This document shows, piece after piece, positions 6,424 through 34,466 of a stretch of DNA of 64,000 nucleotides; the stretch's first letter is position 1; each line of letters opens with the position of its first letter. The notes beneath the pieces are model-generated. The model saw only the letters and a list, made by a program, of their open reading frames with translations. It was not told the DNA's origin and ran no database searches. The stretch spans positions 49,091 to 113,090 of the forward strand of contig JBBRXB010000003.1 in assembly GCA_038248915.1 (NCBI GenBank). The letters are read 5' to 3'. This stretch comes from Candidatus Limnocylindrales bacterium (GTDB lineage Bacteria > Chloroflexota > Limnocylindria > Limnocylindrales > CSP1-4). Position numbers and translations under genes: made by a program.

Positions 6424-6429
6424 TCGATG

Positions 6430-6446: not shown

Positions 6447-6452
6447 GCCGCG

Positions 6453-7067: not shown

Positions 7068-7081
7068 CTGACGGCTCTCTT

Positions 7082-8080: not shown

Positions 8081-8112
8081 GGCGCCATCACCTCCCACCG
8101 TATCCTGCGTGG

Positions 8113-9115: not shown

Positions 9116-9120
9116 AGCGG

Positions 9121-11430: not shown

Positions 11431-11473
11431 GTTCGCCTCCTGGGACGCCACGGGGACTTGCGGCGCCCGTGAG

Positions 11474-11485
11474 ATTGTCTACAAT
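11474..11485. promoter_or_regulatory. Operator ATTGTCTACAAT (site 2 of 6, 1 mismatch) in a divergent promoter region
   Basis: Lies between the XDH-family gene (-) and the AstE/AspA-like gene (+). TACAAT (plus strand) and GACAAT (minus strand) -10-like hexamers are formed by the operator halves. -35-like TTGCGG (plus) and TTGACC (minus, 11499-11504) are correctly spaced. Confidence 0.5.
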
Positions 11486-11531
11486 CCAACCTCGACCGGT
11501 CAAGGCTGGAGTCCGCGATGCCGACCCTTCC

Positions 11532-15088: not shown

Positions 15089-15090
15089 GG

Positions 15091-16128: not shown

Positions 16129-16131
16129 CGG

Positions 16132-17058
16132 TCAGCTCCTGCCGTTCGCGGCCACGACCGGGGTCACGAGCGTGCCCAGATCACCGACCGTGCCGTACAT
16201 GACGTCGCCTTCCTTGAGATAGGTGCCGGCCGCATCGCCGGTCCCGTCGAGGGTCCCGCCGGCGATGACATCGCCCGGCTCGAGGGTCATCCAGCGCGAC
16301 GCGAACGCGATGATCTCCTCCGGGCTGAAGATCATGTCCGCGGTCGAGCCGTGCTGCCAGGTCTTGTCGTTGACCTTGAGCGTCATCTCGAGGTCGTTCG
16401 GATCGGGCGACACCGAGTCGGTCGTGGTGATGTACGGGCCCCAGGCCGCGAAGCCGTCGCCCCACTTGCCGTTGAGCCAATCGAAGAAGTCGTCGAACCC
16501 GCCGGGGTTACGGCCTTCGACGCCCCACTGCATGGAGCGGGCGGAGATGTCGTTGATGACCGAGTAGCCGGCGATGTGGTCGCGGGCCTTGGCGAGCGGG
16601 ATGTCCCGCCCGGCCGTACCGACGACGATGGCGAGCTCGAGCTCCCAGTCGAGGGCGTTCGAAACGGTCGGCAGGGCGACCGCCTCGCCCGGGCCGATGA
16701 TCGCGGACGAGGGCTTGATGAACAGCTTCGGGACGATCACCGTCTTGTCGACCCGCTGTCCCCCGCCCTCCTCGATATGAGCCTGGAAGTTGCCGGCCAC
16801 CGCCAGGAGCTTGCCCGGCCGGCGGATGGGCGCGAGCAGTTCGACCGAGTCGAGCGCCTGGCCACCGCCGGCATCGGCCGCTGCACGGGCCGCGTCGAGG
16901 GCGGCCGGTCCGGCCTGGAGCAGGCCGAGCAGATCGCCGCTCGGGACACGACCGCCGCTGGCCTCGGCGAGGTCGACGATCCGTTCGCTGCCGGCGTCGC
17001 CGATGACTGCCCCGGCTCGGGGGTCGCCATCGGGACCGCGGAAGGTGGCAAGACGCAT
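16132..17058 (-). CDS. Fumarylacetoacetate hydrolase (FAH) family protein, likely 2-keto-3-deoxy-acid dehydratase/hydratase
   Basis: FAH-domain similarity (LAVAGNFQAHIEE..., IVGPGEAVALP). Confidence 0.85.
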   Translation of the reverse strand: MRLATFRGPDGDPRAGAVIGDAGSERIVDLAEASGGRVPSGDLLGLLQAGPAALDAARAAADAGGGQALDSVELLAPIRRPGKLLAVAGNFQAHIEEGGGQRVDKTVIVPKLFIKPSSAIIGPGEAVALPTVSNALDWELELAIVVGTAGRDIPLAKARDHIAGYSVINDISARSMQWGVEGRNPGGFDDFFDWLNGKWGDGFAAWGPYITTTDSVSPDPNDLEMTLKVNDKTWQHGSTADMIFSPEEIIAFASRWMTLEPGDVIAGGTLDGTGDAAGTYLKEGDVMYGTVGDLGTLVTPVVAANGRS

Positions 17059-17086
17059 GGTGATCCTCCTCGGATGTGGTCGGCGG

Positions 17087-18184
17087 CTAGCGCGCCGGAG
17101 CGTTGACGGGGGCGGCCAGCTCCTCGAGCTGGACCTTGATGTTGCCGCGGGCCTGGGACATCAGGACCGCCTGGATGAGCGCGACGGTCGTGCGGGCGGA
17201 CTCGGGCGGGCTGGCCGGTCGGCGACCCGTGTCGAGCGAATCGATGACGTCCTGGAGCCCGGCCTGCATGCCCGCCCGGGTGAACCGCGGGTGGATCGGC
17301 CGGACGGTCGTGACGCCCGGCTTGGTCCGGATGTCCTCGTGGAAGACAGAGTGGAGGCGGATGCCCTCGAGATCGACCACGATCCGGCCCTCCTTGCCGG
17401 TCAGGGTGACCCCGGTGTCCAGACCGACTGTGTCCTTGAACCCGGTCAGATACGCGCGCACACCGTTGGCATAGGCGATGTAGTAGTTCCCGCCCGGCTC
17501 CGTCGCCGGGTCGTTGCCGCCGTCGCCCGCGTAGGCGATGCCGTAGTCCTCGAACCCGGGCTCGAGCTCGGACCAGACCCACAGCGGCTCGGAGTCGGCG
17601 AGGAAGCCGACGAGGTCGATGGCGTGGGTGTGGTTGCGAAACAGCATCGAGCGCGGGCCGCCCATCTCGACGACGATCTGCGACAGCCGGCCGATCTCGC
17701 CGCTGCGAACCATCCGGCGCGCCTCGACGAACTCGGGAAACCAGCGACGGGTGTAGTTGACGTTCATCGTCACGTCCGCGCCACGGACCGCGTTGACGAT
17801 CGCATCGGCGTCCTCGAGCGTGGTCGCGATCGGTTTCTCGCAAAAGATGCCGCGCGCGCCAGCCTCGATGGCGACCTCCACGACGCCCCGGTGCAGATGA
17901 TCCGGGGTGACCACCGCCACGAACTCCGGGCGCTCCGTCCGGAGCATCTCGCCGTAATCCTCGTAGACCTTGAGGTTCGGGTAGCGACTCGACCAGCGCT
18001 CGCGGAACGTGTCGCGCGCTGTGGCCGAGATGTCGCAGCCCGCCACCAGGTCGAGCTCCGGGATGGCCGCGATCGCCGAGGCGTGGCTGTACGGGGTCGC
18101 CGTCCCGAGCGTCGGGTCCGAGGCGGTGGCTGGCAGGTCCGAGGAGATCCAGCTGAGCCCGACGAGGGCGATCCGACGGCTCAT
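17087..18184 (-). CDS. Gfo/Idh/MocA family oxidoreductase
   Basis: RIALVGLSWIS...EKP motif; 365 aa. Confidence 0.8.
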   Translation of the reverse strand: MSRRIALVGLSWISSDLPATASDPTLGTATPYSHASAIAAIPELDLVAGCDISATARDTFRERWSSRYPNLKVYEDYGEMLRTERPEFVAVVTPDHLHRGVVEVAIEAGARGIFCEKPIATTLEDADAIVNAVRGADVTMNVNYTRRWFPEFVEARRMVRSGEIGRLSQIVVEMGGPRSMLFRNHTHAIDLVGFLADSEPLWVWSELEPGFEDYGIAYAGDGGNDPATEPGGNYYIAYANGVRAYLTGFKDTVGLDTGVTLTGKEGRIVVDLEGIRLHSVFHEDIRTKPGVTTVRPIHPRFTRAGMQAGLQDVIDSLDTGRRPASPPESARTTVALIQAVLMSQARGNIKVQLEELAAPVNAPAR

Positions 18185-18332
18185 CGGACGGACTGTCCCG
18201 TATACCGGGACACCATGGGCGCTGATCCTACCCTCACCAGCTGACCTCCGACACGCGTGGCCTCCCTCGATCCCGCCCGGCCAGGTCGTGCGACGGAGCC
18301 CGACTTCGTTGACCCGTAGTGGCGTACAGGTT

Positions 18333-18362
18333 TAGTATGACAGCCGACAAACAGTATGACTT
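18333..18362. promoter_or_regulatory. Direct repeats AGTATGAC x2 plus a flanking inverted repeat (CCGACAA / TTGTCGG) in the divergent promoter region upstream of the XRE-cupin regulator
   Basis: Seen directly. They are preceded by -35-like TTGACC and a TTAGTA/TAGTAT -10-like element. Confidence 0.3.
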
Positions 18363-18499: not shown

Positions 18500-19105
18500 G
18501 TGACCGGGGACGCCCATGTCATCGTCGATACCACGACCGCTGAAGATGACCGTCCGGTCGACATCGAGAGCATCGGCGAGGGCATCCGCCGTGAGCGTCT
18601 GCGTCGTGGTCTGACCCTCGCGCAGCTGGCGTCGCAGGTCAATCTGACCGTCAGCGCCCTGAGTCAGATCGAACGCGGGGCGTCCGATCCATCGATCAGC
18701 TCGTTGCGTCGGATCGCCGGGGCCTTTGACGTCCCGATGTTCCAGTTCATGATCGGTGGCGCTCAGCGCGAGATCGTCGTGCGGCGCGACCGACGCACGA
18801 AGCTCAATTTCCCCGACCGGGTGCTGGAGTACGAGCTGGTCTCGGCGGACACATCCGGCGAGTTCGAGGTCCTGTCGCTGGCCATCGCGCCGGGCGGCTC
18901 GACCGGCGCGGCCCCGACCGGCCATGCCAGCGAGGAATGCGCGATGGTCCTGACCGGCGAGGTCATCGCCGAGGTGGCCGGACAGACCTACACGCTGAGC
19001 GCGGGCGACAGCATCAAGATCCACCGCGAGCTGCTGCACCGGTTCCTCAACGTGAGCGACCGCGACGCCGAGGTCCTGATCATCATCAGCCCGCCGACGT
19101 TCTGA
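18500..19105 (+). CDS. XRE-family transcriptional regulator with C-terminal cupin sensor domain
   Basis: HTH region IRRERLRRGLTLAQLASQVNLTVSALSQIERG, followed by a cupin_2-like C-terminus. GTG start. Confidence 0.7.
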   Translation: MTGDAHVIVDTTTAEDDRPVDIESIGEGIRRERLRRGLTLAQLASQVNLTVSALSQIERGASDPSISSLRRIAGAFDVPMFQFMIGGAQREIVVRRDRRTKLNFPDRVLEYELVSADTSGEFEVLSLAIAPGGSTGAAPTGHASEECAMVLTGEVIAEVAGQTYTLSAGDSIKIHRELLHRFLNVSDRDAEVLIIISPPTF

Positions 19106-19167
19106 CCGGCGTCCGGGGTAACGCCCGGACGGCGTTCGGCAGCCGAAGGTTGCGGTACGAGCCTCCG

Positions 19168-20373
19168 ATGCTTGACAGCGTACCTGTACAATCCGCCGAT
19201 GCGAAAAGTCACACTGCATCGCGGCCCCGCGTGACGATCCCGGCCGAGCCTGCCACGCCCGTCGACATCGGGCGCGACTGGCGGACCATCGATACGCCGG
19301 CCCTCCTGGTCGACCTCGATCGCCTCGACGCCAACATCACGTCGATGGCGGATCATGCCCGCGCCAGCCGGGTGGCCCTGCGCCCCCATTTCAAGACCCA
19401 CAAGGCCGTCGCCATCGCGCGGCGACAGCTGGCGGCCGGCGCGGCCGGCATCACGGTGGCCAAACTCGACGAGGCGGAGGCGCTGGTCGACGGTGGCATC
19501 GAGGCGCCCATCCTCATCGCCTACCAGATCGTGGCGGCGCCCAAGCTTGAGCGCGCCGTCCGCCTCGCCGGTCGCGTGCCATTGACGCTGGCCGTGGACA
19601 GTGCCGAAGGCGCCGTCCGCCTGGCGGTGGCCGCCGGTGCGGCCGGCCGGACGATCGAGGTCTGGATCGAGATCGACAGCGGTCTCCAGCGCTGCGGCGT
19701 GGTCCCGGCCGACGCGCCGGACCTGGCCCGCACCGTGGCCGCCCAGCCGAACCTCCGACTGACCGGGATGTTCACCCATGCCGGCCAGTCGTACGCCGCG
19801 CGGGACGTGGCCGAGGTGGCGGTCATCGCCGTGGCCGAAGCGGGCGCGGTGGTCGAGGCGGCCAACGCGACCCGGGCGATCGGCATCCCGATCGAGACGG
19901 TCAGCGCCGGGTCCACCCCGACCGCACGATTCCTCGACGGGTCATCGGGCATCACCGAGATCCGGCCCGGCACCTACGCCTTCTACGACGCGCTCCAGGT
20001 CGCCCTCGGCTCCACGACCGCGGACCACTGCGCGTTGTCGATCGCGGCGACGATCATCAGCCGCCCGACCCGCGGGCGGGTCGTGGTCGATGCGGGATCC
20101 AAGACGCTGGGCCTGGACAAGGGCGCCCATTCGAGCGACCTGCTGACCGATTACGGCCGGTTGGTCGACGACGAAGGGGCCGTGGTCCGGCTGTCCGAGG
20201 AGCACGGCATCCTGCGCGTTCCGGACGACTCGCCCCTGGCCATCGGCGACCGGGTCCGGATCGTGCCCAACCATGTCTGCTCGGTGACAAACCTCGCCCG
20301 TCGGTTCTACGGGCTCCGCGGCGACGTGGTCCGCGAGATCATCCCGATCGATGCGGCGGGCGGCGTCCACTGA
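19168..20373 (+). CDS. DSD1-family PLP enzyme (alanine racemase-like N-terminal domain; D-serine deaminase/D-threonine aldolase-like)
   Basis: TPALLVDLDRLDANI N-terminus, the lysine-containing HFKTHK motif and overall family similarity. Start uncertain (ATG 19168 or GTG 19231). Confidence 0.7.
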   Translation: MLDSVPVQSADAKSHTASRPRVTIPAEPATPVDIGRDWRTIDTPALLVDLDRLDANITSMADHARASRVALRPHFKTHKAVAIARRQLAAGAAGITVAKLDEAEALVDGGIEAPILIAYQIVAAPKLERAVRLAGRVPLTLAVDSAEGAVRLAVAAGAAGRTIEVWIEIDSGLQRCGVVPADAPDLARTVAAQPNLRLTGMFTHAGQSYAARDVAEVAVIAVAEAGAVVEAANATRAIGIPIETVSAGSTPTARFLDGSSGITEIRPGTYAFYDALQVALGSTTADHCALSIAATIISRPTRGRVVVDAGSKTLGLDKGAHSSDLLTDYGRLVDDEGAVVRLSEEHGILRVPDDSPLAIGDRVRIVPNHVCSVTNLARRFYGLRGDVVREIIPIDAAGGVH

Positions 20374-21979
20374 CCTCGGGGCGCAGCACCCGCCCGAGCG
20401 ACGGCCGGACGGCCTGGCCAGCCTCGATCGCGAACGCCCCGGCCAGCAGCACAGCCTCCACACCGACCGCGGCCCGTGTCGGTTCCGCGTAGGTCGAGGC
20501 ATCGGCGACAGTCGTCGGGTCGAAGAGCACGAGGTCCGCCACGGCGCCCGGCACGACGCGACCGCGATCGGTCAGGCCGAGCGTCGCCGCCGGCAGGCCC
20601 GTCATCTTGTGGATGGCCGTCGGCAGGTCGAGCATCGCGCGGTCGCGCACGTAGCGCCCGAGAACGCGCACGAACGTTCCGTACGCGCGTGGGTGGACCC
20701 GGGCGTCACGGGTGAGGACGCCCAGCTGGTCGGACCCGATGGTCGTCGCCCGGTCGGCGATGATCGTGTCGACGTCCCGGTCGGCCATCATCGTCACGAT
20801 CATCATCGTCGCGCCGCGGTCCGCCGCCATGACGTCGAGCGCGAGCGTGAACGGATCGAGGCCGCGGGCGGCAGCCGACCGGGCGATCGTCTCGCCCTCC
20901 AGCCAGCGGAGCGACGGATCGATGACCGCGGCGACCATGATCCCGTCCCAGCCGCCGGTCGCCACGATGTAGTTCGGCCAGCCGGGGATGCCCGTCGCCA
21001 CGTCGGCCGCGATCCGGCCCCGGACCTCAGTCGACCCGAGCCGCTCCACCAGCGCGTCCGTCCCGCCGTCGTGGACCCAGGCAGGCAGCAGCTGGGTCAG
21101 GAGCGTGCTGCCGGCCGTGTACGGATAGGCGTCGTGATGGACCCGCAGACCCTCCGCGCGCGCTCGGGCGAGCAGCGCGAGGGCCTCGCCGGCGCGGCCG
21201 TGGTTGGATCGGCCGGCGCTCTTGAGATGCGACACCTCGACCCGGACGCCCAGGCGCCGTCCGATCGTGATCGCCTCATCGAGAGCGTCGGTCAGCGTGT
21301 CGGTCTCGTTGCGGATGTGACTGGCGTACAGGCCGTCGACCGGCCGAAGCGCCTCGCCGACCGCGACGATCTCGTCGGTCCCGGCGTACGCCCCGGGCGG
21401 ATAGACGAGCCCGGTGCTCATCCCCCATGCGCCCTCCGCAAGCGCGGCCACGGCGGCCGCGCGCATCCCGTCGAGCTCGGACACAGTGGCGGAGCGTTCG
21501 TCGGCCCCGACCACCGATAGCCGGAGCATGCCGTGACCGACCAGCGCGATCGTATTGACCGCGGGCCGCGCGGCCTCGAGGCGCGCCAGGTACTGACCGA
21601 AGCTCCGCCAGCCCCAGTCGAGATCGGGTCCTAGACCGTGGCAGGACGCCCGCTGCTCATCAGCCAGCCCCCTGTCCAGGGACAGCGGCGCGGGTGAGTA
21701 GCCGCAGTTGCCGATGACCTCGGTAGTCACCCCCTGGGTCACCGAGTTGATCGCGTCGGGATAGGACGGCAGCGTGAAATCGGCATGCGAGTGCATGTCG
21801 ATGAACCCCGGCGCCAGGACGAGCCCGCCCGCGTCGACGACCCGTGCTGTGTCGGGCTCGGCAGCACCGCTGGCGACCACCGCGGCGATCCGCCCGCCTT
21901 CGATGGCGACGTTCGCGCGCCGCCCCGGCGCCCCTGTCCCATCGATGACGGTGGCGCCGCGGATGAGCAGATCGGTCAT
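20339..21979 (-). CDS. N-acyl-D-amino-acid deacylase (D-aminoacylase) family amidohydrolase
   Basis: LIRGATVIDGTG...IDMHSHADF metal-binding motif. 546 aa, family similarity throughout. Confidence 0.85.
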   Translation of the reverse strand: MTDLLIRGATVIDGTGAPGRRANVAIEGGRIAAVVASGAAEPDTARVVDAGGLVLAPGFIDMHSHADFTLPSYPDAINSVTQGVTTEVIGNCGYSPAPLSLDRGLADEQRASCHGLGPDLDWGWRSFGQYLARLEAARPAVNTIALVGHGMLRLSVVGADERSATVSELDGMRAAAVAALAEGAWGMSTGLVYPPGAYAGTDEIVAVGEALRPVDGLYASHIRNETDTLTDALDEAITIGRRLGVRVEVSHLKSAGRSNHGRAGEALALLARARAEGLRVHHDAYPYTAGSTLLTQLLPAWVHDGGTDALVERLGSTEVRGRIAADVATGIPGWPNYIVATGGWDGIMVAAVIDPSLRWLEGETIARSAAARGLDPFTLALDVMAADRGATMMIVTMMADRDVDTIIADRATTIGSDQLGVLTRDARVHPRAYGTFVRVLGRYVRDRAMLDLPTAIHKMTGLPAATLGLTDRGRVVPGAVADLVLFDPTTVADASTYAEPTRAAVGVEAVLLAGAFAIEAGQAVRPSLGRVLRPEVSGRRPPHRSG

Positions 21980-22077
21980 GCGCGCGGGCCCGCATCGTCC
22001 ACAGGTAGAGTGTACTGGAGACTTGATGGTGAAGTCCTGATGTAATACCCTCGACACCGAGGAGGGCACCCCAGCGC

Positions 22078-23055
22078 ATGAAGATCGGTCTGCTCCTGCC
22101 CCAGGGCTACTTCAACGAGTTCGAAGGCTGGCAACCGGTCGCGGCGTGGCAGCGCATCCTCGAGATCGCACGGCTCGGCGAGCGGCTCGGCTTCGATGCG
22201 CTGTGGGCCGGCGAGCACACGCTTTCCAAGTGGGATCCGGAGGGCATGGTCTTCGACTGCGTGACCCTCCATACGGCGGTCGCGGCGGCGGTCCCCCGCG
22301 TGGACATCGGGTTCGGGGTCATCAACTCCACCTTCCGCAATCCGGCGATGACGGCCAAGATGGCGTCCACCCTGGACACGATCAGCGGCGGCCGACTCAT
22401 CCTGGGCCTCGGCTGCGGCTTCAAGCCGAGCGAGGCGAACGCGTTCGGGGTGCCGTTCCCGGACATGAAGGAACGCCTGGCGATCCTTGGTGAGCACTTC
22501 GAGATCATCAGCCGGATGACCCGCCGAGACGAGGCGCCGTTCACGTTCGAAGGACAGCGCGCCCGGGTCGAGAACGTCGTCAACAACCCGCGGACCGGGG
22601 GCGGCGACCACGTCCGCCTGGCGATCGGCGGTCACGGCAAGAACGTGACCATGCGGCTGGCGGCCAGGTACTGCGACGAGATCAACGTCGACCTGCCGGC
22701 TGACGCGCTGCCCGAGGCGATCGCCGTCCTGGCCGACCGGTGCGACGAGATCGGCCGCGACCCGGCATCGTTGGACATCGTGACCGGCACCAACCCGGCC
22801 TGGCCCTACCCGGGGCTGCGCGCGATCGGCCGTCAGCGGCTGATGGCTAAGGAGGACCTGCCGGCGATCATGCCCTACGACTTCGACGATCTTTTGCCGC
22901 GCGCTGACGAGATGGCGCAATGGGTGGAGCTCGGGATCGACAGCATCATCTGTGGCGTGCCGGGCCTGGTCGATACCGACGAGGGCGTCTACGAGCTGAT
23001 CGACGACCTGCGGACCGCCGGCATCGAGCTGACGCCCGTCGCGGCGACGGCGTAG
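22078..23055 (+). CDS. LLM-class F420-dependent (luciferase-like) oxidoreductase
   Basis: KIGLLLPQG...LWAGEH N-terminus and TIM-barrel LLM similarity. Confidence 0.8.
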   Translation: MKIGLLLPQGYFNEFEGWQPVAAWQRILEIARLGERLGFDALWAGEHTLSKWDPEGMVFDCVTLHTAVAAAVPRVDIGFGVINSTFRNPAMTAKMASTLDTISGGRLILGLGCGFKPSEANAFGVPFPDMKERLAILGEHFEIISRMTRRDEAPFTFEGQRARVENVVNNPRTGGGDHVRLAIGGHGKNVTMRLAARYCDEINVDLPADALPEAIAVLADRCDEIGRDPASLDIVTGTNPAWPYPGLRAIGRQRLMAKEDLPAIMPYDFDDLLPRADEMAQWVELGIDSIICGVPGLVDTDEGVYELIDDLRTAGIELTPVAATA

Positions 23056-23062
23056 GCCCGCC

Positions 23063-24046
23063 ATGCAAGTCGGCCTGGTCCTGCCGCAGGGATATTTCAA
23101 CGAGTTCGAGGGCTGGCAGCCCGGCCGCGCCTGGGCCCGCATCGTCGAACTCGCCCAGACCGCCGAGCGCCTCGGCTTCGAGTCCATCTGGACCGGCGAG
23201 CACGTCCTGTCAAAGTGGCCGGGCGAGTCGATCGCCTTCGACTGCTGGGCGCTGTCGTCGGGCCTGGCGCCGCTGGTGCCGCGAGTCGGCATCGGGATGG
23301 TCGTCCTGAACTCGACGTTCCATAACCCGGCGATGACCGCCAAGGCGGCCTCGACCCTCGACGCGATCAGCGGCGGGCGGCTGACCCTCGGGCTTGGAGC
23401 CGGGTTCAAGGACAACGAGGCGGCCGCGTACGGCCACGCCTACCCGGGGCTCAAGGACCGCATGGAATGGCTGTCCGAGCACTTCGAGATCATCTGGCGG
23501 GCTACCCGCCGGGACGAGCCCGGGTTCTCCTTCAAAGGGACGTACTCGTGGGTCGACGACCTGACCAACAGCCCGCGCTCGGCCCGCGCGCCGGGCATCA
23601 AGCTGCTCATCGGCGGCCATGGCAAGAACTACACGTTCCGGCTCGCAGCGCGCTACTGCGACGAGCTCAACCTCAACGTCTTCCCGGACGAGGTCCCGGC
23701 GCTCCTCGAGGTGTTCGGCGAGCGGTGCGCGGAGATCGGGCGCGACCAGGCTACCGTCGAGCTCAACTGCGGCACCAACCAGATCATGCGTTACAAGGAC
23801 CTCAAGGTGACCGGCGGGCAGCGTTTCGCCGAACCACATGAGCTGGCCTACCAGGATCCGGAACGGGTGGCCAATGTCGGCACGCGGGCGGAGGAACTGG
23901 CGGCCTGGAATGAGCTCGGGTTCGACCGGATCACGGCCGGCATCCCGGGCCTCCAGAACACCGACGAAGGGCTGTACGAGTTCATCGACGACTGCCGGAC
24001 GGCCGGGATCGACTTCTTCGATCGTCAGACGGCGCCGGTCGCATGA
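23063..24046 (+). CDS. LLM-class F420-dependent oxidoreductase (tandem paralog)
   Basis: ~55% identical to the preceding gene by eye (MQVGLVLPQGYFNEFEGWQP...). Confidence 0.8.
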   Translation: MQVGLVLPQGYFNEFEGWQPGRAWARIVELAQTAERLGFESIWTGEHVLSKWPGESIAFDCWALSSGLAPLVPRVGIGMVVLNSTFHNPAMTAKAASTLDAISGGRLTLGLGAGFKDNEAAAYGHAYPGLKDRMEWLSEHFEIIWRATRRDEPGFSFKGTYSWVDDLTNSPRSARAPGIKLLIGGHGKNYTFRLAARYCDELNLNVFPDEVPALLEVFGERCAEIGRDQATVELNCGTNQIMRYKDLKVTGGQRFAEPHELAYQDPERVANVGTRAEELAAWNELGFDRITAGIPGLQNTDEGLYEFIDDCRTAGIDFFDRQTAPVA

Positions 24047-25068
24047 CCATCCGGATCGGGATCATCGGCTCCGGCTTCATGGGTCGGACCTGGGCGGAAG
24101 TCGCCGCCAACCATGCTCAGGGCACCTCGCTCAGCGCGGTCAGCGGCGGCCATCGGGCGGCCGCCCTGGCGTCCGACATGGGCATCCCGCTCGAGGCCAG
24201 CCTCGAAGCGCTGCTGTCCCGTGACGACATCGACGCGGTCGTCCTCGCCACGCCTCCGGCGGGCCACCTGCGCCAGACGCTCCAGGTGGCGGCGGCCGGC
24301 CGGCACCTGCTGGTCGAGAAGCCGATGGCCCAATCGGCCTCGGAATGCGCCGAGATGGTCGCCGCCTGCCGAGCCGCTGGCGTCCGCCTGTCGGTCGTGT
24401 CCCAGCATCGCTTCCGCGACACACCGGTCGCCGCCAAGCGGCTCATCGACGAGGGCGCCATCGGTGACATCCGGATGATCCAGCTGACCGGCGCCGAAGT
24501 CGGCTGGTGGGATCTGGCCGACCGCGGCGACGAGTGGAAGCTCGATCCGCACCAGCAGACGGCGTGGGCCTCGTGGGGCGCCCACAGCTGCGACCTGCTG
24601 CGCTGGTTCACCGGCGCGGACGGCGAGCTGGCCTTCGCCCGGATCACCAACTACTCCGGAACGCCGCCGGATGTCGGCCAGAGCGCGGTGGTGACCTACG
24701 AGATGACGTCCGGCGTCCTGGTGCAGATCCTCATGAGCTACGAGTTCCCGCCGCCCGGGCTCAGCCCGTCGTGGCCATGGCGGATCGTCGGCTCGAAGGG
24801 GATCATCGAGCTCGATCCGTACGCCTCCGTCCGGCTTGGACGCGGCGATGGCTGGGAGGTTGTCGCCGAGCAGGCGCCGTTCGACCCGCTGGACGCCTCG
24901 GACCCGATCCGCCTGCGCGCCTACGCGCGTCAGCTCGAGGACCTCGTCGCCGCCATCGTCGACGGCCACGACCCGCTGGTGTCCGGCGAAGAGGGCCGGA
25001 GCACGACCGCGATGCTCGACGCCGCCGAGCGTTCGGCTGCCAGCGGGACGTCCGCGGCGGTCGCCTGA
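24043..25068 (+). CDS. Gfo/Idh/MocA family oxidoreductase
   Basis: ATGA overlap with the upstream stop. IRIGIIGSGFMG and EKPMA motifs. Confidence 0.85.
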   Translation: MTIRIGIIGSGFMGRTWAEVAANHAQGTSLSAVSGGHRAAALASDMGIPLEASLEALLSRDDIDAVVLATPPAGHLRQTLQVAAAGRHLLVEKPMAQSASECAEMVAACRAAGVRLSVVSQHRFRDTPVAAKRLIDEGAIGDIRMIQLTGAEVGWWDLADRGDEWKLDPHQQTAWASWGAHSCDLLRWFTGADGELAFARITNYSGTPPDVGQSAVVTYEMTSGVLVQILMSYEFPPPGLSPSWPWRIVGSKGIIELDPYASVRLGRGDGWEVVAEQAPFDPLDASDPIRLRAYARQLEDLVAAIVDGHDPLVSGEEGRSTTAMLDAAERSAASGTSAAVA

Positions 25069-25090
25069 CCAACAGAGGAGACCGACGCCG

Positions 25091-26017
25091 ATGACGACCG
25101 AACGCGCCGCGAGCGCCTGGACCGATCATCCCGGTGGCGCGCTGCGCTATCGGGCGAACTCGCGGTTCGGGGCGGACGGGCTGCCGTCGGGCGCGTGGTT
25201 CGGGCGGGTCTCCGGGGCGATCGAGGCGCCCGACGGCTCGGTCGTCGTCTTCCAGCGTGGCCCGTCCATCGAGCCGATCGTCGTGCTCGATCGCGAGGGC
25301 CGCTATCTGCGGTCGTGGGACCACGGCTTCGGCCTGCCCCATGGTCTCCGGCTGATGCCCGATGGCAACCTGTGGCTGACCGACGCCGGCCGCCACCGCG
25401 TGCTCAAGACGACGCTCGACGGCGTGGTGCTGATGGAGCTCGGCACGGTCGGCGTCGCCGGCACGGACGAGCGCACGTTCGACAAGCCGACCGACGTCGC
25501 GGTCGCCGCCGACGGCACGATCTACGTCGCTGACGGCTACGGCAATTGCCGGGTCGTGGTGTTCGATCCGGACGGCACGTATCGCGGGACGTGGGGCCGG
25601 ACCGGGACGGCGCCGGGCGAATTCGACACGCCCCACTCGGTGGCGATCGCGCCGGATGGCTCGATCTGGGTCAGCGATCGCGGCAACCTGCGGATCCAGC
25701 GGTTCGAACCGGACGGCCGCTACATCGACGCATGGACGCACCTCGGCGCCACCCAGTGCATCCAGTTTTACGAGGACGAGCTGTGGGTCATCACCCACCG
25801 CACGATCGGCGAGTTGCTCGGCTGGGACAGCCTCGGCGGTCGGATCATGCGGGTCGACCCGGCGAGCGGCGACGTGCTCGGGTCGCTCCCGCTGGCCGGC
25901 CACTTCTTCCACCGGGCGCCGTCCGGTGACATCTGGGTCGGCGCGCTCAATGGGACCGTGGTCCGGCTGACGACCGACTGGAACGAGCTGCCGGGCGAGG
26001 ACGAGCCGGCGCGATGA
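25091..26017 (+). CDS. NHL-repeat six-bladed beta-propeller protein (possible lactonase)
   Basis: Repeated ...DG.IYVAD..N.RV..F..DG... units. GAGGAG RBS. Confidence 0.65.
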   Translation: MTTERAASAWTDHPGGALRYRANSRFGADGLPSGAWFGRVSGAIEAPDGSVVVFQRGPSIEPIVVLDREGRYLRSWDHGFGLPHGLRLMPDGNLWLTDAGRHRVLKTTLDGVVLMELGTVGVAGTDERTFDKPTDVAVAADGTIYVADGYGNCRVVVFDPDGTYRGTWGRTGTAPGEFDTPHSVAIAPDGSIWVSDRGNLRIQRFEPDGRYIDAWTHLGATQCIQFYEDELWVITHRTIGELLGWDSLGGRIMRVDPASGDVLGSLPLAGHFFHRAPSGDIWVGALNGTVVRLTTDWNELPGEDEPAR

Positions 26018-26994
26018 CGTTCAAGGTCGGCGCCCAGATCCTGACCTACGGCTCGACCTGGGACGAAGCGCTCGACGTCGTTCGGTGGCTGGACGGCGCC
26101 GGCTACACGTACATCTGGGGCCACGACCACCTGTACTCCACTGGTGGCGACCCGTACCAGGGGTTCTTCGAGGGCTGGACGACGCTGGCAGCGTGGGCCC
26201 AGGCGACGACGCGCGCTCGGCTCGGGCTGCTGGTCGGCGCCAACACCTTCCGTAACCCTGGGGTCGTGGCCAAGATGGCGGTCACCATCGACCATGCCAG
26301 CCACGGCCGGTCGATCCTCGGGCTGGGCGCCGGCAACGTTGCGTTCGAGAACATCGCCCACGGCATCGATCCCGGCAAGACCATCGGTCAGCGGATGGAC
26401 TGGTTCGAGGAGTCGCTCGGAATGGTCATCGCCCTCCTCGCCGGCGACGAGGTCACCCACCACTCGGACAAGTACCAGTTCGAGGCGGTTCGCCACGCGC
26501 CGCGTCCGTTCCAGCCGCGGATCCCGGTCGTCATCGGGGCCGACGGCGAGAAGCGCGGCTTGAAGTTGGCAGCCCGGCACGCCGACATCTGGCAATGGTT
26601 TGCGCCATTCGACGGCGTCGAGCTGTTCCGCCACAAGGACGAGGTCCTGCAAACGCACGCGGCGAACGAAGGCCGGGACGCGACGACCATCGAGCGGATG
26701 CTCGGCGCCAAGCTCGTCCTCCGCTCCGACCCCGACGAGGCCCAGCGGGTCGCCGAGGAGCTCGTCGCGATCCACAAGTGGGGTCCCTCGGTCTGGGACT
26801 CCGTGTGGGCGACGACCCCGGAGCGGGCCGCCGCTCGCCTGGTCGAATTCATCGAGGCTGGGGCACACTCGTTCAGCCCCCAGATCGGCTGGCCGTACGA
26901 CCGCGAGACGATCGAGCGCCTCATCAGCGAGGTCAAGCCGGCCGTCGAGGCGAGCGTCGCCCGGGGGGATGCGGGCGAGGTGCCAGGAGAGTGA
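26014..26994 (+). CDS. LLM-class F420-dependent oxidoreductase
   Basis: ATGA overlap with the upstream stop. LLM similarity (YIWGHDHL..., GLGAGN). Confidence 0.8.
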   Translation: MTFKVGAQILTYGSTWDEALDVVRWLDGAGYTYIWGHDHLYSTGGDPYQGFFEGWTTLAAWAQATTRARLGLLVGANTFRNPGVVAKMAVTIDHASHGRSILGLGAGNVAFENIAHGIDPGKTIGQRMDWFEESLGMVIALLAGDEVTHHSDKYQFEAVRHAPRPFQPRIPVVIGADGEKRGLKLAARHADIWQWFAPFDGVELFRHKDEVLQTHAANEGRDATTIERMLGAKLVLRSDPDEAQRVAEELVAIHKWGPSVWDSVWATTPERAAARLVEFIEAGAHSFSPQIGWPYDRETIERLISEVKPAVEASVARGDAGEVPGE

Positions 26995-28589
26995 TGGCCG
27001 TGCCCGATCTGGACCTCGTGCTGGCCGGCGGCTCGGTCGTCGACGGGAGTGGCGCCCCGCGTCGTCGGGCGGACGTTGGCGTGGCCGGGGGACGGATCGT
27101 CGCCATCGGAGATCTTTCGGCGGGACCCGGCACCGAACGCATCGATGCAACGGACCGTATCGTCGCGCCCGGCTGGGTGGACCTCCACAGCCACTCGGAT
27201 TTCACGCTCCTCAGCGACGGCCGTGCGGTCAGCAAGGTCGCGCAGGGCGTGACCACCGAAGTCAATGGCAATTGCGGGATGGGTGGCGTGCCGCTCCCGC
27301 CGACGGTCGCCGACCTCACGCGTGCGGCCAACGCCACGGTCGACCCGGACCCGACTGTGCGCTGGGACTGGTCGGACCTTGCGGGCTACGTCAAGGCCCT
27401 CCATGACACCGGCCTGGCGGTCAACACGGCGCCCTTGATCGGTCACGTGACGTTGCGGATCGCGGTCGCCGGGGAGGCGGCGCGACCACTCGACGATGGT
27501 GAGCGCGGCGCGCTCGTCGCCGCCATCGACGCCGGCCTCGATGGCGGCGCGGCGGGCGTATCGACGGGGCTGATGTATCCGCCGGCGATGTCGGCCGACC
27601 GCGACGAACTCGTGGCGATCGGGCGGGCAGTGGCGCGACACGACCGCTTGTTCGCGGTCCACATGCGCAACTACAGCGACCACCTGCTCGAGGCGGTGAC
27701 CGAGGCGCTCGACATCGCGCGAGCGAGCGGGTGCCGCCTCCAGATCTCGCATCTGGCGGTCGCCGGTCGGCGCAACTGGGGGACCGTGCCACGCGCCCTC
27801 GAGTTGATCGAGGCGGCACGCGCGGACGGTGTCGATGTGGCCGTGGACATCTATCCGTACATCGCGGGCAGCGCCAACCTCTCGCAGCTCCTCCCGGTCT
27901 GGGCTCAGGCCGGCGGCCCGGCGGTCATCGTCAAACGCCTGTCCAGCGCGGAGGAACGCCGAACGATCCGGGAAGATTGGCACGAGAGCCTGTTCTTCGG
28001 ATGGGACGAGATCGAGGTCTCGTCGTCGGAGCCAGGGCTGGAGGACGCGCTGGGCCTGACGGTCCAGGCCGTCGCCGAGGCTTGGTCCATGGACCCGAAC
28101 GAGACCGCGCTGTCATTGATCGCGCGCAGCGACAACCGAATCCAGATGGTCGCCTACGGCCGGTCCGAGGACGACCTCCGCGCGGTGCTGACCCACGACC
28201 TCACCTCGATCGGGTCCGATGGCCTGGCCATGGATCCAGATGGACCGTCGTCCGCGGGTCGGCCGCATCCGCGATCGTTCGGCTGTTACCCGCGTCTCCT
28301 CGGACGCTACGTCCGTGATGCCGGGCTGCTCACGCTCGAGCGGGCGGTCGAGATGTCCACCTCGCGCCCCGCCGACCGGGCCGGGCTGGTCGATCGCGGA
28401 CGGATCGTGGAGGGTGCCATCGCGGACCTCGTGGTCTTCGATCCGGACACCATCATCGATGCCGCCACCTTCGCGGCACCGACCCTTCGGCCGGTCGGGA
28501 TCCACGAGGTCGTCGTGGCTGGGCGCAGAGTCCTCGCGGATGGCCGGCAGCTCGACGCCACGCGGCCCGGCCAGGCGTTGCTCGCGTGA
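26994..28589 (+). CDS. N-acyl-D-amino-acid deacylase (D-aminoacylase) family amidohydrolase, second paralog
   Basis: VDLHSHSDFTLL...TTEVNGNCG, paralogous to 20339..21979. TGATG overlap with the upstream stop. Confidence 0.85.
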   Translation: MAVPDLDLVLAGGSVVDGSGAPRRRADVGVAGGRIVAIGDLSAGPGTERIDATDRIVAPGWVDLHSHSDFTLLSDGRAVSKVAQGVTTEVNGNCGMGGVPLPPTVADLTRAANATVDPDPTVRWDWSDLAGYVKALHDTGLAVNTAPLIGHVTLRIAVAGEAARPLDDGERGALVAAIDAGLDGGAAGVSTGLMYPPAMSADRDELVAIGRAVARHDRLFAVHMRNYSDHLLEAVTEALDIARASGCRLQISHLAVAGRRNWGTVPRALELIEAARADGVDVAVDIYPYIAGSANLSQLLPVWAQAGGPAVIVKRLSSAEERRTIREDWHESLFFGWDEIEVSSSEPGLEDALGLTVQAVAEAWSMDPNETALSLIARSDNRIQMVAYGRSEDDLRAVLTHDLTSIGSDGLAMDPDGPSSAGRPHPRSFGCYPRLLGRYVRDAGLLTLERAVEMSTSRPADRAGLVDRGRIVEGAIADLVVFDPDTIIDAATFAAPTLRPVGIHEVVVAGRRVLADGRQLDATRPGQALLA

Positions 28590-29509
28590 ACGGGACGATG
28601 GAGTTCGGGTTCGCCGCGCCGCCCGGCGATCGGGAGATGGGCCGAGTGGACCCGGCCACCTTTGCCGCCGACCTCCACAGCCTGATGGTCGTCGCTGGCC
28701 GGATCTTCGATTCGGTCTGGGTCTCGGACCACCTCATGGAGGGCGATCGCTACCGGATCGAGCCGTGGACCCAGCTGACCTGGCTGGCCGCGCGGGTGCC
28801 GGGTGTCCGGCTCGGCCACAGCGTGCTCGCGAACTCGTATCGGCACCCGGCGCTGATGGCCAAGATGGCGGCCAGCATCCAGGCGCTCAGCGGCGGCCGG
28901 TTCATCCTCGGCTACGGCGCCGGGTGGCTCGAGGACGAGTACCGCGCCTACGGCTACCCGTTCCCGCCGACCCGCGAGCGGATCGCCCGGATGGAGGAGG
29001 CGCTCCGGCTGATCAAGACGATGTGGACCGAGTCGCCGGCCACGTTCGAGGGCGAGTTCTACAGCGTGACGGAGGCCTGGTGCGAGCCGCGGCCCGATCC
29101 TCTGCCCCCGATCATGATCGGCGGGAGTGGCGAGCGATATCTGCTGCGGGCGGTCGCGGAGCACGCCGACTGGTGGCTGTCGTACGGGGACGTCCCGGCC
29201 GTGCAGGAGCGCAAGCTCGCTGCTCTGGCCGACCACTGTCGCGATGTCGGCCGCGACCCTGCGACGATCCGCAAGGCCATCCCGTGGACCGTGTACCTCC
29301 ACCGTGACCGCAACGCGGCCCGGCGCTGGGCGGGCGACGCGGTCGAGGGTGACCGGCCGGCCTTCGCCGGTGACCCGGCCGAGCTCCGCGACCGGATCGT
29401 CGAGGCGGCCGGACTCGGCTTCGACATGATCCAGCTCCGGTTCGCGGGATTGATGGACACGACCGATATCGAGCTGTTCGCCGATGAGGTGCTGCCCCAT
29501 GTCCGCTGA
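28586..29509 (+). CDS. LLM-class F420-dependent oxidoreductase
   Basis: LLM similarity; start overlaps the upstream stop. An alternative ATG is at 28598. Confidence 0.8.
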   Translation: MNGTMEFGFAAPPGDREMGRVDPATFAADLHSLMVVAGRIFDSVWVSDHLMEGDRYRIEPWTQLTWLAARVPGVRLGHSVLANSYRHPALMAKMAASIQALSGGRFILGYGAGWLEDEYRAYGYPFPPTRERIARMEEALRLIKTMWTESPATFEGEFYSVTEAWCEPRPDPLPPIMIGGSGERYLLRAVAEHADWWLSYGDVPAVQERKLAALADHCRDVGRDPATIRKAIPWTVYLHRDRNAARRWAGDAVEGDRPAFAGDPAELRDRIVEAAGLGFDMIQLRFAGLMDTTDIELFADEVLPHVR

Positions 29510-29526: not shown

Positions 29527-30262
29527 GTGCCGGCGGCTGAGTTCGACCTGCCCGCCGGGCATCTCGACGCGCCCGCGCTACCGGCGGTCCGGTTCCCCGA
29601 GGACGGCCGGCCCGAGGCCGAGGTCATCGACGACGTCCGTGGCCGCTTCGACGAGGACCGCTACGCCCCCGACCAGAACTTCTCCATCACCTACTCCGGG
29701 ATCCCATCGGCGATCAGTCAGCAGGTCGAGGCGTTGGCTCACGGCCGGTTCTTCGTCGAGTGGGCGCGCGAGACGGAGCTCGGCATCTGGTCGATGGAGC
29801 GCGAAGCCGTCGCCATGATGGCGTCGCTGCTGGGCGGCGACGGCGGGACCGGTGGGTTCATGACCACCGGCGGCACCGAATCCAACCTGGCCGCCATGCG
29901 CTCGCCCGCAACACCGGCGGCCAGGCCGAGCCGGAGATCATCGCGCCGGTCACGATGCACTTCAGCTTCCGGCGCGGGGCCGAGCTCATGGCCATCCGGC
30001 TGGTCGAGGTCGACGTCGACGACACGACCTACCTGCCCCGCATCGAGGACGTCGAACGCGCGATCACGCCGCGGACGGTCGGGCTGATCTGGTCGGCGCG
30101 GACGGCTCGCTGAGCGCCTTCGACTACCTGATGTCGATGGACCGCTTCACCTTCGGTCACCCGTGCGGCGTCGTCACCGGCCCCAACGAGGCGCTCGTGT
30201 TCTGCTATGCCGGCGGCACCACCAAGACGAGCATCAACGGCGCCCGGTTGCGGATCGACTGA
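29527..30262 (+). pseudogene. Decayed group-II PLP-dependent decarboxylase gene (frameshifted and truncated)
   Basis: The N-terminal part, up to GGTESNLAAMRS, matches fold-type-I decarboxylases. The reading frame then shifts twice (around 29905 and 30090) through all three frames. Only ~245 codons remain, and the downstream PLP-lysine region is not recognisable. Confidence 0.55.
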
Positions 30263-34381: not shown

Positions 34382-34466
34382 ACTGGATACTCGGGGTCGA
34401 GTTGCAGTGCTACGCTAGCTCGTGATGGGCTACGCAGCGTCAACGACCCGGACCGGCCGGGCGGGC

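Follow-up and report, generated by a model that had tools for sequence, protein, structure and literature searches.

A 64,000-nucleotide stretch of contig JBBRXB010000003.1 from a Candidatus Limnocylindrales bacterium (below, the window) contains, between positions 18500 and 29509, a gene cluster that encodes four luciferase-like (LLM) oxidoreductases (LLM1 to LLM4), an NAD(P)-type sugar oxidoreductase of the Gfo/Idh/MocA family (Gfo), an NHL-repeat propeller protein (NHL), two amidohydrolases with the D-aminoacylase fold (DAA1 and DAA2), a pyridoxal phosphate (PLP) enzyme of the DSD1 type, and a regulator that combines an XRE-type DNA-binding domain with a cupin domain (Table 1). Because the G+C content is ∼70% across the window, raw lists of open reading frames (ORFs) are crowded with spurious frames; the gene map was built from the frame-specific G+C content at third codon positions (GC3), ORF analysis, and inspection of start sites. 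Gene calling carried out independently on a public contig of identical sequence (Logan SRR19962012) returned the same genes, and Pfam recovered the domains that an initial annotation of the sequence had named for every one of them.

The seven genes from LLM1 through LLM4 follow each other closely on the plus strand: four of the junctions are overlaps of 1-4 nt (the start of Gfo, for instance, overlaps the stop of LLM2 by 4 nt), and the other two are gaps of 7 and 22 nt, a spacing that makes translational coupling credible. DAA1 is the sole minus-strand gene of the set and diverges from the LLM operon, while DSD1, on the plus strand, converges on it such that their 3′ ends overlap by 35 nt, an arrangement also seen in the related locus L004. 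The deacylase, the DSD1-type enzyme, and the XRE-cupin regulator had been described as one divergent unit, a description that does not survive the strand assignment, as both the regulator and DSD1 are plus-strand genes. Comparison with orthologs in three related loci (L007, L004, and L096) gives dN/dS values of 0.07-0.26 for every gene, and all operon genes are under purifying selection; the order of the genes is conserved far beyond chance, and the gene cluster is real and functional.

DAA1 and LLM1 are separated by a 98-bp intergenic region. An alignment of seven loci shows that it carries a conserved 53-bp footprint (22000-22052; CACAG..AGAGTGTA..CTTGATGRTGAAG..ATGYAATA) in which no clear palindrome was seen. 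The composite motif is found once per locus and always 5′ of LLM1, both in the window and in L002, L004, L006, L007, L092, L094, and L096, and its recurrence in these eight loci suggests that the footprint is a promoter/operator region shared by DAA1 and LLM1. The XRE-cupin protein, which has a PuuR-like architecture (74 bits against the NCBIfam PuuR model, cut-off 211), is probably the regulator of this divergent region. A promoter scan places a promoter-like site upstream of the XRE-cupin gene itself, at 18309-18338; scanning for promoters and terminators gave nothing useful within or after the operon, and neither tRNAs nor Rfam families were detected in the window.

Immediately 3′ of LLM4, a three-frame translation reveals the N-terminus of a group II PLP decarboxylase followed by a shift of frame. 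In tblastn searches with the intact proteins of locus L005, positions 29536-29901 (plus strand) match residues 4-124 of a 409-residue MfnA-like PLP decarboxylase, positions 29901-30098, after a frameshift, match its residues 125-189, and positions 30095-30256 match the last 54 residues of a weakly sialidase-like BNR_2 protein. Because L006 and L007, the two closest relatives, carry three intact genes after LLM4 (the decarboxylase, a DMFA2_C protein of ∼730 residues, and BNR_2) and then the same SDR gene, 29536-30256 is a deletion scar, at which the window has lost ∼3.9 kb (the rest of the decarboxylase, all of DMFA2_C, and most of BNR_2) from an ancestral unit of ten genes, not seven. The initially proposed seven-gene plus-strand operon (22078-29509) is thus correct in gene content, coordinates, and close spacing, as seen in the GC3 analysis and the independent gene call, but incomplete as a unit, since decayed genes follow LLM4. 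Among the related loci, the decarboxylase-DMFA2_C-BNR_2 trio is present only where NHL is present.

Table 1. Positions of the cluster genes, followed by neighboring and other genes of the window
Feature	Positions	Strand	Evidence
XRE-cupin regulator	18500-19105	+	Pfam HTH_3 and Cupin_2; GC3 frame; independent gene call
DSD1-type PLP enzyme	19231-20373 (alternative start 19168)	+	Pfam Ala_racemase_N and D-ser_dehydrat
DAA1, D-aminoacylase-fold amidohydrolase	20339-21979	-	Pfam Amidohydro_3
LLM1, luciferase-like oxidoreductase	22078-23055	+	Pfam Bac_luciferase
LLM2, tandem paralog of LLM1	23063-24046	+	Pfam, NCBIfam
Gfo, Gfo/Idh/MocA NAD(P) sugar oxidoreductase	24043-25068	+	Pfam
NHL, six-bladed propeller, predicted PAL-type	25091-26017	+	hhalign, Foldseek
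LLM3, luciferase-like oxidoreductase	26014-26994	+	Pfam, NCBIfam
DAA2, D-aminoacylase-fold amidohydrolase	26994-28589	+	PDB sequence matches
LLM4, luciferase-like oxidoreductase	28586-29509	+	NCBIfam, PDB sequence matches
HpcH/HpaI aldolase	14258-15088	-	Pfam
Gfo/Idh/MocA protein, 52% identical to operon Gfo	15091-16128	-	Pfam
FAH-family hydrolase	16132-17058	-	Pfam; best NCBIfam hit 2,4-didehydro-3-deoxy-L-rhamnonate hydrolase, below cut-off
Gfo/Idh/MocA protein	17087-18184	-	Pfam
SDR	30958-31710	-	Pfam
Enolase-superfamily acid-sugar dehydratase	31810-33090	+	Pfam
MFS_3 transporter	33008-34381	-	Pfam
PPOX-class protein	8113-8523	+	TIGR03618, above cut-off (79.05)
PPOX-class protein	35605-36024	-	TIGR03618, above cut-off (79.05)
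Molybdopterin-binding large subunit, xanthine-dehydrogenase/aldehyde-oxidase type	9121-11451	-	
PLP aldolase, GntG (guanitoxin-type) threonine-aldolase-like	34422-35582	+	NCBIfam, 390.6 bits (cut-off 230)
Fic/DOC-domain ORF	58151-58843	-	
Enolase-superfamily protein, first of tandem pair	∼61231-62420	-	
Enolase-superfamily protein, second of tandem pair	62385-63599	-	

Conservation and modularity in related loci

Related loci were collected by scanning a profile of NHL homologs against one genome per species, and a metagenome scan with Gfo added further variants; all window proteins were then compared by tblastn with all loci, yielding a synteny matrix of 17 LLM-Gfo loci and one locus without LLM genes (L012). 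The nearest loci found with the NHL profile (83-87% identity) are from metagenome-assembled genomes (MAGs) named "uncultured Chloroflexia," and the next (55-61%) are from Candidatus Limnocylindrales and other Chloroflexota; by this similarity, the host is classed as a Limnocylindria-like member of the Chloroflexota. An actinobacterial origin, which the G+C content of ∼70% might suggest, was rejected, all close relatives being Chloroflexia or Limnocylindrales MAGs.

The arrangement LLM1-LLM2-Gfo-NHL-LLM3-DAA2-LLM4 is found in the window, L006, L007, and L008, the only loci with DAA2, and L002 has the same order without that gene. Shorter versions are LLM1-Gfo-NHL-LLM4 (L004), LLM1-LLM2-Gfo-LLM3-LLM4 (L094), LLM1-LLM2-Gfo-LLM3 (L096), and LLM2-Gfo with the SDR gene directly after it (L093); NHL is thus absent from three otherwise intact LLM-Gfo clusters (L093, L094, and L096). 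In L091 and L095 the order is LLM1-LLM2-Gfo-LLM3-NHL, and in L005, L009, L010, and L089 an MFS gene is inserted before NHL, with genes for an Opp-type ATP-binding cassette (ABC) transporter upstream in L005 and L089. Across the related loci, LLM1(/2) plus Gfo is the only invariant set (17 of 17 LLM-Gfo loci), and the SDR, the enolase-superfamily dehydratase (81-90% identical), and the MFS gene adjoin this core in almost every variant and accompany it wherever the flank is covered. LLM3 is frequent but not universal, LLM4 is accessory, and the DAA1, DSD1, and XRE genes are confined to the sub-clade of the window, so that NHL, LLM3, LLM4, both deacylases, and DSD1 have all been gained or lost; the orders LLM1-LLM2-Gfo and NHL-decarboxylase-DMFA2 are fixed wherever those genes are present. 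Judged by what the initial annotation itself named as refuting its reading, a lack of conservation as a unit in relatives, the unit is only partly supported: all seven genes are kept only in genomes of ∼85% amino-acid identity or more, and more distant relatives keep LLM1(/2) and Gfo with the rest shuffled. Further out, none of the partner genes of the window was found near Gfo homologs of ≤68% identity or NHL homologs of ≤54% identity (∼70 loci, mostly Acidobacteriota), and the immediate neighbors of ∼70 distant NHL homologs are heterogeneous, xylose-isomerase-like TIM barrels and Gfo genes being only slightly overrepresented.

Two observations concern individual loci. The long-read-derived MAG contigs of L002, L006, and L008 contain several genes split by apparent frameshifts (e.g., LLM2 in L006 and most genes in L008), and because these are probably assembly errors, gene absences in the three loci should be read with care. 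In L133 (ERZ25039488 contig_5234, 1-11026), an LLM1-like singleton of 63% identity lies directly after an Opp-type ABC transporter and beside two BNR_2 genes, showing that the association of LLM, peptide-type ABC transporter, and BNR_2 genes recurs outside the operon.

Such a pattern of gain and loss would also be expected if the cluster were a catabolic "toolbox," that is, a set of co-regulated but promiscuous or independently acting paralogs that attack diverse recalcitrant organic matter without forming a linear pathway. Every gene besides LLM1(/2) and Gfo comes and goes independently among close relatives, LLM1-like singletons occur beside Opp-type ABC transporters and BNR_2 genes, the window as a whole is rich in paralogs (7 Gfo/Idh/MocA, 5 enolase-superfamily [MR_MLE], and 4 LLM genes), and SAR202 Chloroflexi have genomes with comparable luciferase-like expansions (PMC5395668). 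This explanation, which we hold to be unlikely although the strongest of the alternatives, is difficult to square with the translational coupling and the strong purifying selection on every gene, with the two gene orders that stay fixed where present, and with the fact that the DAA1/DSD1 pairing has a characterized two-step precedent, described below.

Predicted activities of the enzymes

The four LLM proteins are 307-327 residues long and have the TIM-barrel LLM fold; LLM1 and LLM2 are 54% identical, and the remaining pairs are ∼30% identical. For all four, the best NCBIfam family is TIGR03560 (F420_Rv1855c), with 174.2 (LLM1), 172.8 (LLM2), 174.8 (LLM3), and 200.3 bits (LLM4), all below the curated cut-off of 231.4 bits and ∼100 bits above any family of the flavin mononucleotide (FMN) type; the four best NCBIfam hits of each protein are all of the coenzyme F420 type (TIGR03560, TIGR03619, TIGR03856, and TIGR03621). 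To our knowledge, most luciferase-like enzymes of the F420 type, including all the Rv1855c-like ones, have no known substrate. Solved structures give a mixed picture: LLM4 matches 3RAO, the F420-dependent fHMAD (9FP4, 1e-20), and the FMNH2-dependent SfnG (3e-18) in PDB sequence searches, and LLM1 matches Mer, FGD, and LuxA at ∼1e-11 each. Two small PPOX-class genes located elsewhere in the window exceed, with 93.0 and 95.8 bits, the curated threshold of TIGR03618, an F420-dependent family (79.05 bits; Table 1), and are, judging from these scores, the best sign within the window that the host uses F420; a literature search on Limnocylindria and F420 returned nothing relevant, and F420 production is documented in Chloroflexi (PMC8498797). 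Where the initial annotation had four F420-dependent LLM oxidoreductases, Pfam bears out the four LLM genes, and use of F420 by their products is plausible, with the odds leaning somewhat in its favor, although the scores stay under the cut-offs and the fold comparison, to which we return below, does not favor it. A role of the LLM proteins as sulfoquinovose or sulfonate monooxygenases, which the Foldseek matches given below had prompted, was considered and set aside: the SsuD and SfnG hidden Markov models give 39-99 bits against cut-offs of 383-518, and no accompanying flavin reductase is present.

Gfo exceeds the Pfam cut-offs for PF01408 (82.7 bits), PF22725 (59.4 bits), and PF02894 (48.0 bits) and has no equivalog hit (IolG, 106.6 bits against a cut-off of 355). 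Its best PDB matches are 3Q2K (1e-25; listed as "oxidoreductase," and which we take to be WlbA), the aldose-aldose oxidoreductase 5A02, and inositol dehydrogenases.

The two deacylase-like proteins are 42% identical to each other. Both contain the motifs HxH, GNCG, two His, and GSD and keep the metal ligands His67, His69, Cys96, His220, and His250 and the catalytic Asp366 (here and below, numbering of the Alcaligenes faecalis D-aminoacylase AfDam). The PDB matches of DAA2 are AfDam itself (1M7J, 1e-87), the N-acyl-D-glutamate deacylase BbDam (3GIP, 6e-85), and PpOngB (9KB1, 7e-76). The active site of DAA1 is canonical: in this protein and five orthologs, the carboxylate and acetamido anchors Tyr192, Lys252, Tyr283, Ser289, and Arg377, which are invariant throughout the Dam and OngB groups (PMC12017989), are all kept, the position of Met254 is occupied by Ala (Ala256 in OngB), and Thr290 is retained (Ser292 in OngB). 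In DAA2 of the window and its orthologs in L006 (11888-13480) and L007 (11897-13477), Lys252 and Thr290 are both replaced by Ala with the metal site intact, and in the two orthologs Tyr192 is replaced by Phe. Because the carboxylate-binding Lys252 is replaced, DAA2 is unlikely to be a canonical N-acyl-D-amino-acid deacylase, and the pocket suggests a substrate without an α-carboxylate. At positions 193, 256, 292, and 348 of PpOngB (Ala, Ala, Ser, and Gly in OngB itself), DAA1 has Val, Ala, Thr, and Met and DAA2 has Met, Ala, Ala, and Gly, the equivalent of OngB Gln298 falling beyond the aligned block; going by these residues, the pocket pattern is neither cleanly that of OngB nor cleanly that of the Dam group. 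In L089, a PIG-L (LmbE-type N-deacetylase) gene (10969-11883) lies between NHL and the decarboxylase gene, and no Amidohydro_3 (D-aminoacylase-fold) gene was seen in this 21-kb locus, which suggests that one deacylase family can take the place of another in the cluster.

DSD1, in turn, is matched best in the PDB by D-Thr aldolase (7DIB) and D-threo-3-hydroxyaspartate dehydratase (3WQC), both at ∼1e-56. Its Ala_racemase_N and D-ser_dehydrat domains pass the Pfam cut-offs, its RPHFKTHK sequence aligns with the PLP-lysine motif of 7DIB, and its best NCBIfam hit is the 3-hydroxy-D-aspartate aldolase BhcC (NF045642; 196.9 bits against a cut-off of 690). The metal ligands have the form His-x-Cys (NHVC, opposite SHVD in the aldolase), and Ala stands where the aldolase has its base, His193. 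Since a metal site of His and Cys marks the dehydratase type, and His and Asp together with the base His193 mark the aldolase type (PMC4401734), the aligned residues assign DSD1 to the metal-dependent D-β-hydroxy-α-amino-acid dehydratases.

The characterized precedent for such a pair is OngB and OngC. OngB deacetylates N-acetyl-D-glucosaminate (PMC9537276, PMC12017989), and OngC, a PLP enzyme of fold type III that counts D-Ser deaminase and D-Thr aldolase among its distant relatives, converts the resulting D-glucosaminate into 2-keto-3-deoxygluconate and ammonia (PMC9537276). This precedent reconciles the two substrate guesses offered initially for the cluster, N-acyl-D-amino acids and sugar lactones, because an N-acetyl-D-aminoaldonate is formally an N-acyl-D-amino acid. 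The deacylases might instead serve plain D-amino-acid salvage, with DAA1 and DAA2 acting on N-acyl-D-amino acids (e.g., from cell-wall turnover), DSD1 dehydrating D-Ser, D-Thr, or D-hydroxy-Asp, and the LLM and Gfo genes being merely co-located. The solved structures that match DAA2 best, 1M7J and 3GIP, are indeed those of true D-aminoacylases, Thr290, a residue typical of such enzymes, is present in DAA1, and DSD1 resembles D-threo-3-hydroxyaspartate dehydratase and D-Ser dehydratase. We nevertheless consider salvage improbable: a conserved divergent control region is common to DAA1 and the LLM operon, DAA2 lies inside that operon in translational coupling with LLM3 and LLM4, carbohydrate-acid genes make up the overwhelming part of the surroundings, and the α-carboxylate-binding Lys missing from DAA2 is kept by all D-aminoacylases (PMC12017989).

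NHL had been annotated as lactonase-like. Homologs that are ∼50% identical to it carry the NCBI name [quoted passage not shown] and a profile-profile alignment (hhalign) with the rat peptidyl-α-hydroxyglycine α-amidating lyase (PAL) core (reference 100% identical to PDB 3FVZ; index + 497 gives PAM numbering) covers 253 columns with a probability of 99.95% and an E value of 8e-38. It aligns R56, H84, Y150, H182, R197, and H271 of NHL with R533, H585, Y654, H690, R706, and H786 of rat PAM, and all six residues are invariant in 30 homologs. We take His585, His690, and His786 of the rat enzyme to bind Zn, Tyr654 to be catalytic, and Arg533 and Arg706 to bind the substrate. At the Ca site of PAL, Asp787 is replaced by Phe272 in NHL, and Met784 has no counterpart. 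An AlphaFold2 (AF2) model of NHL (mean confidence [pLDDT] 92.7) has PAL (3FVZ) as its top Foldseek match in the PDB (E = 1.3e-20; TM-score 0.74), and no lactonase of the SMP30/PON type is among the top 50; a PDB sequence search is dominated by repeat-rich TRIM proteins and designed "Pizza" NHL proteins. Profile and model thus identify NHL as a homolog of the PAL-type Zn lyases with all catalytic residues retained, and the lactonase label is withdrawn. The SMP30-type sugar lactonases, to which faint Pfam SGL hits point, were rejected in view of PAL being the best match in both profile and fold, a rejection that concerns family membership and leaves a lactonase activity chemically conceivable.

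PAL chemistry consists in the cleavage of N-C(OH)(COO-) hemiaminals. By eye, NHL has no N-terminal signal-like sequence and is predicted to be cytoplasmic, and no partner of the PHM-type Cu monooxygenase kind was found in the window, in the related clusters, or beside 70 distant NHL homologs. At least 594 NHL relatives are present in the genome collection, and a literature search for bacterial PAL-like gene clusters gave nothing relevant. Because NHL is absent from three otherwise intact clusters, its step may be one that also runs without an enzyme, for example the collapse of a hemiaminal or hemiketal, the opening of a ring, or the hydrolysis of a lactone.

The PAL-type site raises the question of whether the operon carries out an oxidative N-dealkylation like that of PHM and PAL. 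In such a scheme, FMNH2-dependent LLM proteins would hydroxylate the α-carbon of an N-acyl- or N-alkyl-glycine-type compound, as NtaA and EmoA do, the PAL-type lyase would release an amide or amine and glyoxylate, the amidohydrolases would cut the amide, and a BhcC-like DSD1 would take glyoxylate-derived hydroxy-amino acids. It would explain why NHL retains every PAL catalytic residue, including both Arg residues for the substrate carboxylate, with PAL as its best structural match; why FMN-dependent monooxygenases head the Foldseek list for LLM1; why BhcC is the best NCBIfam hit of DSD1; and why NHL travels with amide-hydrolase-like genes. We judge it quite improbable, however, as the LLM proteins favor F420-type over FMN-type families by the margin given above and reach only 29-51 bits for the NtaA/DmoA family, Pfam finds no flavin reductase gene in the operon, three clusters do without NHL, DSD1 has the His-x-Cys site of a dehydratase and lacks the aldolase base, and no monooxygenase partner accompanies the 70 distant NHL homologs.

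Surroundings and proposed function

The cluster lies in what its gene content marks as a carbohydrate-acid (sugar-acid catabolic) island. Upstream, a minus-strand unit (14258-18184) with an aldolase, a FAH-family hydrolase, and two Gfo/Idh/MocA genes is syntenic with the operon in L004, L006-L008, and L096. Downstream, between 30958 and 34381, the best NCBIfam hits are talarate/galactarate, arabinonate, and galactonate dehydratases, all below their cut-offs. In all, the window encodes HpcH- and DHDPS-type aldolases, a FAH hydrolase, a PIG-L deacetylase, an AstE/AspA-type deacylase, and a BNR_2 protein; Aldedh, 2-Hacid_dh, FMN_dh, Dak1, and transketolase-like E1 proteins; and components of sugar-type ABC transporters together with GntR and IclR regulators.

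Several further features of the window stand apart from the cluster. A tandem pair of enolase-superfamily genes lies near its end, and a xanthine-dehydrogenase/aldehyde-oxidase-type molybdopterin-binding large subunit is encoded toward its start (Table 1); no genes for FAD or [2Fe-2S] subunits were identified beside the latter. The PLP aldolase gene next to the MFS_3 gene passes the NCBIfam cut-off for GntG, and a homolog of this type also occurs near the cluster in L005 (17615-18322) and in L002. The segment 58058-61230 has a lower G+C content (∼0.66) and no high-GC3 ORFs, with Fic/DOC as its sole recognizable domain, and may be foreign or decayed DNA. Four ORFs are without a Pfam match (1336-2772, 40466-41314, 41233-42348, and 42495-44105), and all but 41233-42348 pass the high-GC3 filter.

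We propose that the region serves, in modular fashion, the oxidative and non-phosphorylative breakdown of N-acylated amino sugars or acid sugars, forming one co-regulated locus inside the much larger sugar-acid utilization island, and put the probability of this reading at roughly 40%. Its constant redox core would consist of LLM1 and LLM2, probably F420-dependent hydride transferases, and Gfo, and the optional modules placed around it would deal with nitrogen substituents. An imported sugar or amino sugar would be oxidized by Gfo and/or the LLM proteins to a lactone and on to the acid; DAA1 would deacylate the N-acyl-D-2-amino-aldonate, as OngB does, and DSD1, with its metal and PLP, would dehydrate and deaminate the product to a 2-keto-3-deoxy acid and ammonia, as OngC does. 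The 2-keto-3-deoxy acid would be cleaved by the HpcH aldolase or by way of the SDR and the FAH hydrolase, and the neighboring dehydratase would share in the breakdown. DAA2, with its pocket lacking the carboxylate-binding Lys, would be a second deacylase for a different amide, and DAA2, the PAL-like lyase NHL, the MfnA-like decarboxylase, the DMFase-like (amidase) protein, and the sialidase-like propeller BNR_2 may handle variable substituents; NHL travels with the three proteins named after it, all of which have been deleted in this genome.

A number of findings weigh against this proposal. Every enzyme scores below the family cut-offs of equivalog level, and the substrate is a matter of inference. 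The catalytic Glu in the GxGxGE motif of fHMAD and Fgd is replaced by Phe in LLM1 and LLM2, by Asn in LLM3, and by Trp in LLM4. Foldseek ranks the FMN-dependent SsuD, MsuD, and SfnG slightly above Mer and FGD for the AF2 model of LLM1 (pLDDT 90.7), with TM-scores of ∼0.70-0.75 for all five, and the NCBI (PGAP) label of a 92%-identical homolog is the generic "LLM class flavin-dependent oxidoreductase." True D-aminoacylases are at least as close to DAA1 and DAA2 as OngB is, and DAA1 has the D-aminoacylase-type Thr at the position of OngB Ser292. Of the other ong-cluster components, the GH20 enzyme OngA, KdgK, the RidA-type OngD, and an SSS transporter did not turn up in Pfam scans of the window ORFs, and a MurR regulator was not seen either. 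A plain route from sugar to aldonate would offer no evident task for the PAL-type site of NHL, the MFS_3 transporters are EntS-like and belong to a family better known for export, and the modularity may mean that there is no single linear pathway.

Export by MFS_3 pumps would be natural if the genes formed a biosynthetic cluster that tailors an amino-sugar- or amino-acid-derived secondary metabolite or cofactor, and antibiotic pathways do employ F420-dependent LLM proteins, sugar oxidoreductases of the Gfo type, and PLP decarboxylases (see the review PMC8498797). This is very improbable, however: the Pfam results for the window and the related loci examined include no scaffold-forming enzyme (nonribosomal peptide synthetase, polyketide synthase, ATP-grasp enzyme, glycosyltransferase, or precursor of a ribosomally synthesized, post-translationally modified peptide), the neighbors are degradative aldolases, hydrolases, and dehydratases, and L005, L089, and L133 have an Opp-type uptake system ahead of the cluster.

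Although nothing in the evidence demands new biochemistry, one more ambitious form of the catabolic proposal deserves mention, in which an F420-LLM and Gfo route oxidizes or epimerizes N-acylated amino or acid sugars and the PAL-type propeller, turned to a non-peptide substrate, cleaves or ring-opens a sugar-derived α-hydroxy-carboxylate hemiaminal or hemiketal. We regard it as doubtful; if true, the Rv1855c-like LLM clade would gain its first physiological substrates, and the PAL fold its first known function in bacteria. Two to four LLM genes in an operon with sugar and amide enzymes in any case give a concrete context for assigning function to these proteins in an abundant uncultured soil and freshwater lineage, and bacterial PAL homologs, for which we found no assigned function, are numerous and keep the full catalytic apparatus of the animal lyase. 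The OngB/OngC pairing, for its part, may reach well beyond marine Gammaproteobacteria and may not need chitin fragments generated by lytic polysaccharide monooxygenases. If the ordinary catabolic reading holds, the value of the locus lies mainly in a better annotation of carbon and nitrogen metabolism in Limnocylindria.

Comparison with known systems

The initial annotation could name no pathway for this combination of genes, and we likewise came upon none in the literature that would account for all of them. For the LLM1/LLM2-Gfo core, we found no described counterpart, and DAA1 with DSD1 appears, from the conserved residues, to join a recently described kind.

The LLM proteins share their fold with the F420-dependent hydride transferases (Fgd/FSD, Adf, Mer, fHMAD, and the Rv1855c family TIGR03560), their best-scoring families are actinobacterial F420-associated groups, the host phylum is one that produces F420, and F420-type PPOX genes lie in the window. 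They differ from these enzymes in scoring below every curated cut-off and in lacking the catalytic Glu of Fgd and fHMAD. In SAR202 Chloroflexi, many deeply diverged luciferase-like paralogs have been read as degraders of recalcitrant matter, with the choice between FMN and F420 left open there (PMC5395668); those organisms are marine, in contrast, their enzymes are read as Baeyer-Villiger or alkane monooxygenases, and no operon comparable to the LLM-Gfo-deacylase cluster was described there (PMC5395668).

With PAL, the catalytic core of animal PAM (3FVZ), NHL has in common the six-bladed NHL propeller, the three Zn-binding His residues, the Tyr, and both Arg residues. Unlike PAL, it is without a PHM partner, apparently cytoplasmic, devoid of Asp787 and Met784, and dispensable in some clusters, and its context is carbohydrate and amide catabolism rather than peptide maturation.

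The flanks of the cluster resemble the non-phosphorylative deoxy-hexose and aldonate pathways (L-rhamnose LRA1-6 and L-fucose) in supplying Gfo or SDR proteins, an enolase-superfamily aldonate dehydratase, an HpcH-type aldolase, an SDR with a FAH-type diketo-acid hydrolase, and an aldehyde dehydrogenase. Against those pathways, no equivalog cut-off is reached, there is no canonical lactonase, and the LLM proteins, deacylases, and PLP enzymes are foreign to them.

The closest likeness to the DAA1/DSD1 pair is in the ong cluster of the oxidative chitin pathway of Pseudoalteromonas prydzensis, in which a deacetylase gene likewise lies beside a fold-type III PLP gene (PMC9537276, PMC12017989). OngB is a deacetylase of the D-aminoacylase fold with a mononuclear Zn at the β-site, DAA1 keeps all the shared ligands as well as the Ala at the Ala256 position, and the combined action of OngB and OngC on an N-acetyl-D-2-amino-aldonate yields a 2-keto-3-deoxy acid along with acetate and NH3. 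In the window, by comparison, the host belongs to the Chloroflexota rather than to the Gammaproteobacteria, and the pair is linked to LLM, Gfo, and non-phosphorylative aldolase and hydrolase genes.

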